Part shown: positions 12,233 through 50,503 of the stretch, one piece after another | How the letters are laid out: every line of letters starts with the position of its first letter | Numbering within the stretch: position 1 is the stretch's first letter | Origin: Escherichia coli | GTDB taxonomy: Bacteria; Pseudomonadota; Gammaproteobacteria; Enterobacterales; Enterobacteriaceae | Length of the DNA stretch: 64,000 bases | Assembly (NCBI RefSeq): GCF_003991155.1 | Contig: NZ_CP031293.1 | Direction: 5' to 3' (one strand) | Position numbers and translations under genes: made by a program | Notes under the pieces: generated by a model | What the model saw: only the letters and a program-made list of their open reading frames with translations | Databases searched by the model: none | What the model was told of the DNA's origin: nothing

Positions 12233-12383
12233 AACTTTGCCTCAGGCATTAGAAATAGCGCGTTATTGTACACGGATTAATCGCACTACAAAACAGGATC
12301 ACAAACATCCTCCGCAAACAAGTATTGCAGAGTCCCTTTGTGATCGCTTTCACGGAGCATAAAAAGGGTTATCCAAAGGTCAT

Positions 12384-12462
12384 TGCACCAACATGGTGCT
12401 TAATGTTTCCATTGAAGCACTATATTGGTGCAACATTCACATCATGGTGCAGCCCTTTTGCA
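12384..12462 (+). promoter_or_regulatory. NtrC (NRI) enhancer sites upstream of glnA
   Basis: TGCACCAacatGGTGCt (12384-12400), GCACtatatTGGTGCA (12417-12433) and a third GGTGCA..TTGCAC element, matching the TGCACC-N5-GGTGCA consensus. Confidence 0.75.
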
Positions 12463-19141: not shown

Positions 19142-19207
19142 AATGGTTCGTCTTTTAGCCGTTTTATTCAGTATAGATTTGCGGCGGAATCTAACAGAAA
19201 GCAAGCA

Positions 19208-19452
19208 AAGAAAAAAGGCGACAGATTACTCTGTCGCCTTTTTTCCTGACTCATAACCCTTAACGGGTCTTACAATCCTTGCAGGCCGCCAACACACCCT
19301 GTTTTTCCATTAGCCGGAACAATCCGTGTTGATTCCATTTCCGTTTAATTACGTCTCCGGACGTTTGTCTTCCTGACAATCCTCTGTCTTCGCCTCCTGG
19401 CGCTCCTGACCCTCATCCTGAGTCATTGTTCCTGTTAGCGTCCTCGCTCTAT
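19208..19452 (-). ncRNA. csrC: CsrC sRNA (CsrA-sequestering RNA)
   Basis: Minus-strand sequence ATAGAGCGAGGACGCTAACAGGAACAATGACTCAGGATGAGGG... with many GGA motifs, ending in hairpin ggcgacagagtaatctgtcgcc plus U-run; lies in the yihI-engB spacer as in K-12. Confidence 0.75.
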
Positions 19453-19722: not shown

Positions 19723-20355
19723 TTGACTAATTTGAATTATCAACAGACGCATTTTGTGATGAGTGCGCCTGATATTCGCCACCTACCTTCCGATACCGGA
19801 ATTGAAGTGGCTTTTGCAGGCCGTTCCAACGCAGGTAAATCCAGCGCGCTGAACACGCTGACTAACCAGAAAAGCCTGGCGCGGACCTCAAAAACCCCAG
19901 GGCGCACCCAGCTTATCAACCTGTTTGAAGTGGCTGACGGCAAGCGTCTGGTTGACTTGCCTGGGTACGGTTATGCGGAAGTCCCGGAAGAGATGAAGCG
20001 CAAATGGCAGCGCGCGCTCGGCGAGTACCTCGAAAAACGTCAGAGCCTGCAAGGTCTGGTGGTGCTAATGGATATTCGCCATCCGCTGAAAGATTTGGAT
20101 CAGCAGATGATTGAGTGGGCGGTAGACAGCAATATCGCCGTGCTGGTGCTGCTGACCAAAGCGGACAAACTGGCAAGCGGCGCACGTAAAGCGCAATTGA
20201 ATATGGTGCGTGAAGCGGTGCTGGCGTTTAACGGTGATGTGCAGGTTGAAACCTTCTCTTCACTGAAGAAACAAGGCGTGGACAAGCTGCGGCAGAAACT
20301 GGATACCTGGTTTAGCGAGATGCAGCCTGTAGAAGAAACGCAGGACGGCGAATAA
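19723..20355 (+). CDS. engB: Ribosome biogenesis GTP-binding protein EngB/YsxC
   Basis: 210-aa ORF with TTG start; G1 motif GRSNAGKSS. Confidence 0.93.
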
Positions 20356-20374
20356 TTTTCTTGCCTTAATGCTT

Positions 20375-20460
20375 GTGCCGGATGTGGCGTATCCGGCCAG
20401 TAAATTCAATAGATTACACTTCTACCGTTGGCCTGATAAACATGGCGCATCAGGCATTAC
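20375..20460. repeat. REP elements
   Basis: gccggatgtggcgtatccggcc and ggcctgataaacatggcgcatcaggc. Confidence 0.7.
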
Positions 20461-20480
20461 GGATCTTTTCTTTCGCCCAA

Positions 20481-20589
20481 TAAAAAACGCCCCAGTCATT
20501 ACTGACTGGGGCGGCTAAAATATTCAGCCAAATCCGATTACGTGAAGTAAAAGGTCTGAAAGATAGAACATCTTACCTCTGTACCCTAC
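20481..20589 (-). ncRNA. spf: Spot 42 sRNA
   Basis: Reverse complement reads GTAGGGTACAGAGGTAAGATGTTCTATCTTTCAGACCTTTTACTTCACGTAATCGGATTTGGCTGAATATTTTAGCCGCCCCAGTCAGTAATGACTGGGGCGTTTTTTA (109 nt), the Spot 42 sequence with its terminator. Confidence 0.9.
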
Positions 20590-20736
20590 GCGACTAACTT
20601 TACTCTTTTTTGTTCAGTTCAGAAAGCATTTTTTGTAATTTTTTTTCAGTTGTTGCATAGGAATTTCTAATAGCCATCACAAAACGTGACAGCTTATGTT
20701 GCTTACTTACGAAAAAAGGGCATGTTCAGGCGAATC

Positions 20737-23523
20737 TTAGTGCGCCTGATCCCAGTTTTCGCCACTCCCCACTTCCACCAGCAACGGCACATCCAGACGG
20801 GTACAGTTTTCCATCAGTTGATGAATCTGCTTCGCGACGGCATCGACATCATCTTTATGAACTTCAAATACCAGTTCATCGTGTACCTGCATGATCATAC
20901 GTACACGCGGTTGCTCAGCCTGTAGCCACGCATCAACGGCAATCATCGCCCGTTTGATAATGTCGGCGGCGGTTCCCTGCATTGGCGCGTTAATGGCTGC
21001 ACGTTCAGCCGCTGCACGACGAGCACCATTGCTGGATTTGATATCCGGCAGATACAGACGGCGTCCGTCCAGCGTTTCAACGTAGCCCTGCTCTTTCGCC
21101 TGAGCACGGGTGCGTTCCATATACTCCAGCACGCCAGGGTAGCGTTCGAAGTAAAGGTCCATGTACTTCTGCGCTTCTTTACGTGGAATGTTCAATTGCC
21201 GCGCCAGGCCGAAAGCACTCATGCCATAAATCAGACCAAAGTTGATCGCTTTCGCGCTACGGCGTTGCTCGCTGGTTACGGTTTCCAGTGGTAAACCAAA
21301 CACTTCTGCCGCCGTAGCCCGGTGGATATCTTTTCCTTCCGCGAATGCGGTCAGCAAGCCTTTGTCACGCGAGAGATGCGCCATAATGCGCAGTTCAATC
21401 TGCGAGTAGTCCGCCGAGACAATCACATAATCCTCTGGCGCAATAAACGCCTGGCGGATACGACGACCTTCTTCATTACGCACCGGAATGTTTTGCAGGT
21501 TAGGATCGGTTGACGATAAACGTCCCGTTGCGGTTACTGCCTGGTGATAAGAGGTATGTACACGCCCGGTTTTCGGGTTGATCATCAACGGCAGCTTGTC
21601 GGTGTAGGTCGATTTCAGCTTCGCCAGACCACGATACTCCAGAATCACTTTTGGCAACGGATAGTCCAGCGCCAGTTCTTCCAGTACCTCTTCCGACGTT
21701 GACGGCGCGCCACCCGGCGTTTTCTTCAGCGGTTTAATGCCCTGTTTTTCAAACAGAATGGTTTGTAACTGCTTGGTGGAAGAAAGGTTAAATTCTTCAC
21801 CTGCAATTTCATGCGCTTTCTTTTCCAGCTCAGCCAGACGCAAGGTGAGCTCTTCAGAGTGATTGTGCAGCACTTTCGGATCGATCTTCACACCGTTACG
21901 TTCAATGCGTGAAAGCACCGGCACCAGCGGCATTTCGATATTCTCGAAGACGTTCAACGGCCCTTTGTGTTTTTGCAGATCCGGCCACATTTTCAGATGC
22001 AACTGCAAGGTGACATCTGCATCTTCGGCGGCGTAACGTCCGGCTTCTTCGAGGGCAATCTGGTTAAAGGTCAGTTGATTTTTGCCTTTACCCGCAATCT
22101 CTTCAAAAGTGATGGTTTTGTGCTTCAACCAACGTTCCGCGAGGCTGTCCATATCGTGACGCCCGGCAACGCTATTGAGAATGTAGGACTCCAGCATGGT
22201 ATCAAACGCAATCCCACGTAGTTCAATGCCGTAGTTCGCCAGAATACCGCGATCGTATTTCAGGTTTTGCCCGACCTTCAGCGCCTTTTCATCTTCCAGC
22301 AGCGGTTTTAGCAACTCGAGTGCACGCTCGCGAGAGATTTGATCGGGCGCATCAAGATAATCATGAGCAACCGGAATATATGCCGCTACGCCTGGCTCGA
22401 TAGCAAAAGAAAGCCCGACCAGGTTAGCAGAGATGTTATCAAGGCTGTCGGTTTCGGTATCAAATGCAAATACCGGCGCTTTTTCCAGCTTCGCAATCCA
22501 CTCTTTCAGTGTTTCTTCATCAAGGATGGTGACGTAGTTGTCATAAGAAATCACCGTTGCCGTCACTTCTGGCGCTTCGTCTGCAACACTGGTTTCCTGC
22601 GGCCTGGCTGCGGGTTTCACCCCTTTAGCCTGTAGCCATTTGCCCGCTTCGACATCAGCAGTCCAGCGTTTGAACTCATACTTTTTGAACAGCCCTAACA
22701 ACTCTTCCGCCGCCGGTGGCTGCACTTCCAGTTGTTCACAGGTCAGCTCCAGTTCAACGTCGGTTTTAATCGTCGCCAGCTGGTATGAGAGATAAGCAAC
22801 TTCTTTGTTTTGCTCGAGCTTCGCTGCCATTGTTTTCGCGCCACGGAAGCTCAACCCAGCAATTTTTTCTGGCTCGGCATACAGCGTATCCAGCCCGCCA
22901 AGACCTTGCAGCAATGCCTGCGCGGTTTTTTCACCGACGCCCGGTACGCCAGGAATGTTATCAGAGGAGTCACCCATCAGCGCCAGGAAATCGATGATCA
23001 GTTCTGGCGGCACGCCGTACTTATTCACCACCTCTTCCGGTCCGAGGATGGTATTCGTCATGGTGTTGATAAGCGTGATATTTGGTGTCACCAGCTGCGC
23101 CATATCTTTATCGCCAGTGCTGATCAGCACCGGACGCCCGGCTTTTTCGGCTTCGCGCGCCAGAGTACCAATAACGTCGTCCGCTTCTACGCCAGAAACC
23201 GCCAGCAGCGGCAGTCCCATCGCTTTAACCATCGCGTGCAGAGGTTCGATTTGTGCTCGCAGATCGTCCGGCATTGGCGGGCGATGTGATTTGTAATGTT
23301 CAAACAGTTCATCACGAAAGGTTTTTCCCTTGGCGTCAAAGACCACCGCTGCATGCGTCGGTTTATATTGCATGATCAGACTGCGCAGCATGTTGAGGAC
23401 ACCATACATCGCACCAGTCGGCTCGCCTGCGCTGTTAGTCAGCGGGGGAAACGCGTGATATGCGCGATAAAGATAAGATGAACCATCTACAAGGATAAGT
23501 GGATTTTGGGGGATCTGAACCAT
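20737..23523 (-). CDS. polA: DNA polymerase I
   Basis: 928-aa ORF; 5'-3' exonuclease, 3'-5' exonuclease and polymerase domains. Confidence 0.97.
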
Positions 23524-29683: not shown

Positions 29684-29803
29684 ATGCCTGGCAGTTCCCT
29701 ACTCTCGCATGGGGAGACCCCACACTACCATCGGCGCTACGGCGTTTCACTTCTGAGTTCGGCATGGGGTCAGGTGGGACCACCGCGCTACGGCCGCCAG
29801 GCA
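29684..29803 (-). rRNA. rrfA: 5S ribosomal RNA (120 nt)
   Basis: Reverse complement reads TGCCTGGCGGCCGTAGCGCGGTGGTCCCACCTGACCCCATGCCGAACTCAG...GGAACTGCCAGGCAT. Confidence 0.97.
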
Positions 29804-29896
29804 AATTCTGTTTTATTAACCCGCTTGTCGCCGGTTAATTTAATCTGTATCAGGCTGAAAATCTTCTCTCTTCCGCCAAAACACCTTCGGCGTTGT

Positions 29897-32800
<2,904 letters not shown>

Positions 32801-32982
32801 TCACAACCCGAAGATGTTTCTTTCGATTCATCATCGTGTTGCGAAAATTTGAGAGACTCACGAACAACTTTCGTTGTTCAGTGTTTCAATTTTCAGCTTG
32901 ATCCAGATTTTTAAAGAGCAAAACTTCGCAGTGAACCTTTGCAGGTACACTCTGAAGTATTTTTATTTAATCACTACAGAGA

Positions 32983-33058
32983 TGGTGGAGCTATGCGGGA
33001 TCGAACCGCAGACCTCCTGCGTGCAAAGCAGGCGCTCTCCCAGCTGAGCTATAGCCCC
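32983..33058 (-). tRNA. alaT: tRNA-Ala (UGC), spacer tRNA
   Basis: Reverse complement GGGGCTATAGCTCAGCTGGGAGAGCGCCTGCTTTGCACGCAGGAGGTCTGCGGTTCGATCCCGCATAGCTCCACCA (76 nt). Confidence 0.97.
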
Positions 33059-33100
33059 ATAACATGTAGTTAAAACCTCTTCAAATTTGCGGTGCAAATT

Positions 33101-33177
<77 letters not shown>

Positions 33178-33245
33178 GTAGAGGTTTTACTGCTCATTTT
33201 CATCAGACAATCTGTGTGAGCACTGCAAAGTACGCTTCTTTAAGG

Positions 33246-34787
<1,542 letters not shown>

Positions 34788-48260: not shown

Positions 48261-50503
<2,243 letters not shown>

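Follow-up and report, generated by a model that had tools for sequence, protein, structure and literature searches.

An intact Spot 42 RNA gene, spf, with its embedded SpfP reading frame on an Escherichia coli chromosome

The minus strand of positions 20589 to 20481 in a 64,000-nucleotide stretch of an Escherichia coli chromosome (contig NZ_CP031293.1 of assembly GCF_003991155.1; hereafter the window) is, with near certainty, the spf gene of E. coli, identical to the reference gene and located in its canonical place. [quoted passage not shown] The gene is already known and ordinary, and the embedded SpfP is the sole omission of an earlier description of this DNA made without database searches (the sequence-only reading).

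Identity of the spf gene

The RNA and the elements recognised within it are the following.

20481..20589, minus strand: spf, 109-nt Spot 42 RNA, with +1 at 20589 (Rfam, K-12 identity, fold)
20542..20589, minus strand: predicted 5' stem-loop, nt 1-48 (MFE and centroid structures, Rfam consensus structure)
20524..20571, minus strand: spfP ORF, nt 19-66, MFYLSDLLLHVIGFG followed by the stop, AUG to UGA (translation; position of K-12 b4837)
20530..20541, minus strand: predicted single-stranded linker, nt 49-60, GUAAUCGGAUUU (unpaired probability 0.6-0.9; a base-pairing region)
20513..20529, minus strand: predicted second hairpin, nt 61-77, GGCUGAAUAUUUUAGCC (fold and Rfam alignment)
20481..20513, minus strand: predicted intrinsic terminator, an 11-pair GC-rich stem-loop with a U-run (terminator scan, covariation)

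Read on the minus strand, 20589..20481 is GTAGGGTACAGAGGTAAGATGTTCTATCTTTCAGACCTTTTACTTCACGTAATCGGATTTGGCTGAATATTTTAGCCGCCCCAGTCAGTAATGACTGGGGCGTTTTTTA, 109 nt that start with GTAGGGTACAGAGG and end with GGGGCGTTTTTTA. A scan of the whole window with Rfam, run at gathering thresholds, returned RF00021 (Spot_42) at 20599..20481 on the minus strand, with 122.8 bits and E = 3.6e-24, as compared to a gathering score of 80 for this family. At the residue level the alignment spans model positions 1-115 of 115 and every helix is intact; it is longer than the RNA because the model carries about 10 nt located 5' of the transcription start. Direct string comparison with spf of K-12 MG1655 (b3864; NC_000913.3, 4049899-4050009, corresponding to window positions 20589..20479) revealed 111 identical positions of 111. 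The length of 111 nt is that of the current K-12 annotation, which would end at 20479 here, in contrast to the classical 109 nt. Taken as a sequence match, this similarity to Spot 42 is far beyond chance, and none of the results speaks against the identification.

The sequence-only reading had recognised Spot 42 in full length on the minus strand, including its terminator, and had named an Rfam scan and an alignment to K-12 spf as ways to check this. Both were run, the former giving a full-length match well over the gathering score and the latter no mismatch within the RNA; the coordinates proved to be exact, and the fold and the terminator scan agree with them. The label 'sRNA' given in that reading is correct with regard to identity but incomplete, since the transcript also encodes the 15-aa SpfP, intact at 20571..20524.

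Other Rfam families with matches on the same bases (PyrR, VrrA, NsiR1 and ncS54) scored 17-25 bits, far under their thresholds, and a Spot_42 fragment on the plus strand, found in a permissive search, likewise scored 17-25 bits, well under threshold. These candidates were rejected; sub-threshold matches at spf depend on little other than the terminator hairpin.

In the E. coli population, the 111-nt spf sequence is present as a single copy in 5424 of 5426 complete genomes, with at least 99% identity in 5423 of them. Two of the 5426 genomes lack spf, and two of the 5424 records with spf carry a plasmid label; wrong replicon labels, assembly problems or true deletions may account for these records.

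Genomic neighbourhood and comparison with K-12

The genes flanking spf are as follows.

20737..23523, minus strand: polA, DNA polymerase I, 928 aa (ORF; C-terminus ...ENWDQAH before the stop, as in K-12; annotation)
19723..20355, plus strand: yihA/engB, GTPase, 210 aa (ORF; length and position as in K-12 b3865)
19199..19452, minus strand: CsrC RNA (Rfam, 277.9 bits), about 1 kb beyond spf

The gene polA is located upstream of spf on the same strand, and yihA/engB is downstream and convergent, so that the earlier placement of the RNA between engB and polA stands; the polA and yihA labels are also found in a RefSeq record of 100% identical sequence. The window runs in the reverse direction relative to the numbering of the K-12 chromosome of E. 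coli. The annotated order in K-12 MG1655 is polA (b3863), spf (b3864), spfP (b4837, 4049917-4049964), yihA (b3865, on the opposite strand), csrC and yihI. Shared between K-12 and the window are the RNA over 111 nt, the SpfP ORF, the terminator, the fold, and the neighbours polA, yihA/engB and csrC.

An alignment of 420 nt around spf showed 99% identity to K-12 and zero differences inside the RNA. The differences found are at position -40 relative to spf (20629), where the window has A and K-12 has G; in the spacer between polA and spf, where the window has one C more than K-12 in a C-run just past the polA stop (~20718-20720); and in the REP-containing spacer between spf and yihA, with three substitutions, all within 20399-20444. 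Stretches 100% identical to a 501-nt query around spf are present in many E. coli chromosomes.

The spf-yihA spacer contains, at 20377-20455, two REP elements in opposite orientation, resembling a BIME, with heads at 20443-20455 (minus strand) and 20377-20389 (plus strand). The REP-head pattern has 14 matches in the window against 2.0 expected. The ORFs of 25-49 aa present on either strand in the two spacers flanking spf are without support; they overlap REP elements or else the promoter.

Several other RNA features were identified in the window using Rfam. A complete rRNA operon occupies 29686-34787 on the minus strand (16S at 33246-34787, 23S at 29897-32800, 5S at 29686-29801) and includes two tRNAs, at 33104-33177 and 32986-33058 (minus strand), as well as a StyR-44 match at 32808-32916, directly upstream of the 23S gene. 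Judging by its position relative to polA on the K-12 map, this operon is presumably rrnA. Full-length matches were also found for the ES222 sRNA at 12314-12421 (minus strand, 135.3 bits) and for the 'Erse' sRNA at 49898-50149 (minus strand, 319.4 bits), which ends with ...GCUAAAUGA; the latter match may lie within the 3' end of a coding sequence.

Distribution among Gammaproteobacteria

A cross-species scan with the 20-mer GATGTTCTATCTTTCAGACC (nt 18-37 of the RNA), using one genome per species, yielded at least 120 loci, which come from Enterobacterales, Vibrionales, Aeromonadales and Alteromonadales apart from one chance match. The latter, L029:1010-1029 from a Muribaculaceae MAG, contains the exact 20-mer within wholly unrelated flanks, about what is expected in ~300 Gb; it was left out when footprints upstream of the RNA, the alignment used for structure and the groups of ORFs were made, and is counted in the 120 loci and the 118 ORF translations given below.

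The sequence-only reading had called Spot 42 a standard landmark downstream of polA. This view is borne out by the full order in 88 of 120 other-species loci among the matches listed, where polA precedes the RNA on the same strand and engB follows it on the other. Of the remaining 32 listed loci, 25 retain either polA or engB and 7 have neither gene, and in many of these exceptions the match is near the end of the locus. In two Aeromonas loci (L015 and L031) the match is in the middle of the locus and engB, on the opposite strand, is some 600 nt further downstream, with no polA detected upstream; linkage to polA is therefore not universal.

Nucleotides 2-15 of the RNA, a part not covered by the search pattern, are invariant in the 110 distinct homologues among the matches listed and in the window. 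Homologues from Vibrionales, Aeromonadales and Alteromonadales, for instance Vibrio, Aliivibrio, Aeromonas and Shewanella, have essentially the same 5' ~40 nt and keep the architecture of the second hairpin and terminator. Their linker, second-hairpin and terminator sequences differ, with compensatory changes, and engB is convergent downstream in most of the listed loci of these orders.

Some homologues depart from this pattern. Thirteen from Shewanella and Parashewanella (L005, L019, L034, L038, L045, L050, L063, L070, L083, L101, L110, L112 and L113) share a 1-nt insertion (GGTTAAG), have different linkers, some of them 7-9 nt longer, and contain no conserved SpfP-like ORF. Bowmanella yangjiangensis (L056:12921-13038) keeps no more than the initial ~45 nt of Spot 42, directly followed by a different GC-rich hairpin and a T-run; judging by this sequence, it is apparently a shortened variant without the linker and second hairpin.

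Fold and terminator

The minimum free energy of Spot 42 was -40.6 kcal/mol, versus -23.1±3.4 kcal/mol for shuffled sequences (z = -5.08). The 5' stem-loop holds the Shine-Dalgarno sequence and AUG of spfP, together with two published base-pairing regions. A pattern scan found the terminator stem at 20513..20488, with 11 pairs of which 8 are G-C, followed by TTTTTTA.

The structure was further analysed for covariation in an alignment of 111 sequences, comprising the window and 110 distinct homologues among the matches listed. The search pattern had fixed nt 18-37 in these sequences, and the structure itself came from the window sequence. Standard pairs were formed in 97.6% of structure cells, versus 36-54% when the partners were slid by 1-3 columns, and none of 500 shuffles reached the observed covariation score. 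Among the 110 listed distinct homologues, 99.1% of the cells of the terminator helix are paired and 9 of its 10 pairs show compensatory changes; for the second hairpin the figures are 90.4% and 2 of 7. The 5' helices are nearly invariant and hence uninformative for or against pairing. According to these models, the window RNA is predicted to have the Spot 42 architecture, consisting of the 5' stem-loop, linker, second hairpin and Rho-independent terminator with a U-tail.

Base-pairing with target mRNAs

Spot 42 binds Hfq (PMC8916003), and three of its single-stranded regions pair with mRNAs for the use of non-preferred carbon sources (PMC8916003, PMC12612679). Of its targets galK was the first, and others include gltA, srlA, nanC/nanT, fucI, sthA and puuE (PMC8916003, PMC12612679). 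A U-rich 3' tail and an AU-rich linker are present in the window RNA. The linker also contains a GGA at 20535..20533; binding of CsrA to GGA in the Spot 42 linker shields the RNA from RNase E (PMC12612679).

Duplex prediction with the K-12 galK mRNA as the target, ignoring intramolecular structure and Hfq, paired nt 9-61 with positions -19..+30 of galK, including the Shine-Dalgarno sequence and start codon, through 40 pairs at -39.0 kcal/mol. This calculation used nt 1-62 of Spot 42, as the full-length RNA pulled the terminator into the duplex. None of 1000 dinucleotide-shuffled targets had an energy as low (-22.0±3.8 kcal/mol). Within the predicted duplex, the linker (nt 49-60) pairs with galK -12..-19. 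The modelled match indicates complementarity to galK, and not regulation.

The embedded SpfP reading frame

In the window the SpfP ORF has an intact Shine-Dalgarno sequence, AUG, 15 codons, stop and the His10 codon, and translates to the expected peptide; the Shine-Dalgarno GAGG (nt 11-14, 20579..20576) is located 4 nt 5' of the AUG. SpfP is made, in larger amounts at 42-45 °C, and it binds CRP and blocks activation at some CRP-dependent promoters (Aoyama et al. 2022, PMC8916003); an H10A mutant was reported to be defective (PMC8916003).

Of the 118 cross-species loci translated among the matches listed, 102 contain the 15-codon ORF with the same stop, and all 102 ORFs share one and the same His10 codon. 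The C-termini are ...LLLHVIGFG or GFS in Enterobacterales, ...LLFHVIGLG or GFG in Vibrionaceae, and ...LLFHVIECG in Aeromonas. The variable sites in codons 8-15 among the matches listed comprise 4 third, 2 first and 2 second codon positions, so few that coding constraint and RNA constraint are not separable.

These data raise the question of whether spf could primarily be a very small protein-coding gene, its transcript being the spfP mRNA and base-pairing a secondary function. The intact translation signals, the retention of the ORF and of His10 in the listed loci of Enterobacterales, Vibrionales and Aeromonas, and the published detection and function of SpfP (PMC8916003) are all in line with such a possibility, which complements the sRNA assignment and is no true competitor to it. 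However, coding cannot explain the invariance of nt 2-15, ahead of the AUG, in the 110 listed distinct sequences; Shewanella and Parashewanella retain the 5' region of the RNA without the ORF; and the long complementarity to galK, together with published sRNA genetics, indicates an RNA function. A primarily protein-coding gene is therefore unlikely. Three findings argue for the RNA function as the primary and older one: the invariance of the untranslated 5' end, the fact that Shewanella has lost the ORF, and the complementarity to galK.

Promoter region and candidate CRP site

The elements proposed upstream of spf are listed below.

20597..20647, minus strand: putative spf promoter (phylogenetic footprint, 116 listed loci)
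20602..20597, minus strand: putative -10, TAAAGT (TAnnnT conserved at -13..-8)
20625..20620, minus strand: putative weak -35-like TTTCTG (17-nt spacer to the -10; TT at -36/-35 conserved)
20647..20630, minus strand: A-tract at -58..-41, UP-element-like (footprint)
20666..20681, minus strand: candidate CRP-like half-palindrome TGTGATGGCTATTAGA, centred at -84.5 (2 mismatches to TGTGA-N6-TCACA)

Footprints were built from 116 loci of the four gammaproteobacterial orders and from 64 Enterobacterales loci, in both cases among the matches listed. In the former set three bases of the -10 (T, A and the last T) are 80-99% conserved, as are most positions of the A-tract (-58..-41); this tract resembles an UP element, in keeping with the very high abundance of Spot 42. 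A scan of 20300-20800 for the sigma-70 consensus gave no promoter at its threshold; from the conserved sequences we infer the assignment of the -10 and -35 hexamers and of the UP-element-like tract.

The A at -40 is the only strain-specific feature near spf and lies where the A-tract meets the weak -35. Of the Enterobacterales species among the matches listed, 33 have A and 29 have G at this position, and the exact 61-nt promoter stretch of the window around -40 is found in 1487 of 5417 E. coli genomes (~27%). Its frequency in E. coli and in Enterobacterales marks it as a common polymorphism. That the A slightly tunes Spot 42 and SpfP levels, and hence how strong catabolite repression is in different E. 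coli lineages, is very unlikely, and since the polymorphism is widespread any effect is probably small or nil.

The cAMP-CRP complex represses spf, and Spot 42 is abundant in glucose (PMC8916003, PMC12612679); the sequence-only reading had likewise described a CRP-repressed regulator of secondary carbon-source genes, in agreement with this literature. A search for TGTGA-N6-TCACA with up to 2 mismatches found one site upstream of spf, at 20666-20681, and 22 sites in the whole window versus 25.9 expected by chance; the columns of this CRP-like motif are ~50-70% conserved in Enterobacterales among the matches listed. With a motif frequency no better than chance, the site is a candidate only and does not count as evidence for a CRP operator.

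Another block, GTAAGTAAGCAACATAAG (20693-20710, minus strand; -121..-104), located just past the polA stop and a T-run, is at least 80% conserved at 16 of 18 positions in 64 listed Enterobacterales loci, better than the adjacent CRP-like motif. It could be an element of the polA 3' end or an upstream regulatory site of spf.

The location of spf on the same strand as polA, 147 nt past its stop codon, with no strong polA terminator found between the two genes, would be compatible with Spot 42 being part of the polA 3' UTR or terminator region, processed from a read-through transcript. This origin is scarcely credible in view of the TAnnnT at -13..-8, the A-tract and the +1 region, conserved or invariant in the listed loci of four orders, the presence of the RNA in Aeromonas without polA upstream, and the CRP-regulated spf promoter described in the literature (PMC8916003, PMC12612679). 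A chance likeness to Spot 42 or a degenerate pseudogene can be dismissed altogether, given the full-length model match (E = 3.6e-24) and the 111/111 identity to the K-12 gene. The interpretation of spf as an independent gene for Spot 42 is followed below.

Proposed mechanism

The RNA would be transcribed from its own sigma-70 promoter just past polA, giving the 109-nt Spot 42, with transcription stopping at the intrinsic terminator. As the literature describes for Spot 42, repression by cAMP-CRP would be lifted in glucose and the RNA would become abundant. The Hfq-bound RNA would then pair with translation-initiation regions through three segments, single-stranded or in loops, within its 5' 60 nt, and such pairing is expected to block the translation of mRNAs for the uptake and catabolism of non-preferred carbon sources; together with CRP this would form a feed-forward loop. 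The transcript would double as a tiny mRNA, with nt 19-66 being translated into SpfP that would bind CRP and block some CRP-dependent promoters. High temperature would melt the 5' stem hiding the Shine-Dalgarno sequence and AUG, resulting in a greater effect of SpfP. In published work, Spot 42 and CRP constitute a feed-forward loop that SpfP reinforces by inhibiting CRP (PMC8916003, PMC12612679).

The same logic, a CRP-repressed base-pairing sRNA that is also the mRNA of a small protein of carbon metabolism, is known from AzuCR of E. coli and VcdRP of Vibrio cholerae (PMC12612679). In this comparison, taken from the literature, the three RNAs are of unrelated sequences and families, and the small proteins of AzuCR and VcdRP have different targets from that of SpfP.

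Annotation of the locus

The RefSeq/PGAP record NZ_CP033850.1, of 100% identical sequence, has both spf and csrC unannotated, and 9 of 12 sampled genomes list no feature under spf. This record also contains a pseudo-CDS ('hypothetical protein; frameshifted; internal stop'; L002 2875-3041, corresponding to window ~19426..19260) wholly within csrC, which looks like an annotation artefact.

Automated annotation easily overlooks the RNA, as many RefSeq/PGAP records with this very sequence show no feature at spf. Spot 42 is among the oldest and best-characterised bacterial sRNAs, and the copy described here matters as annotation only: the locus should carry a dual-function annotation, spf together with spfP, rather than that of an sRNA alone.
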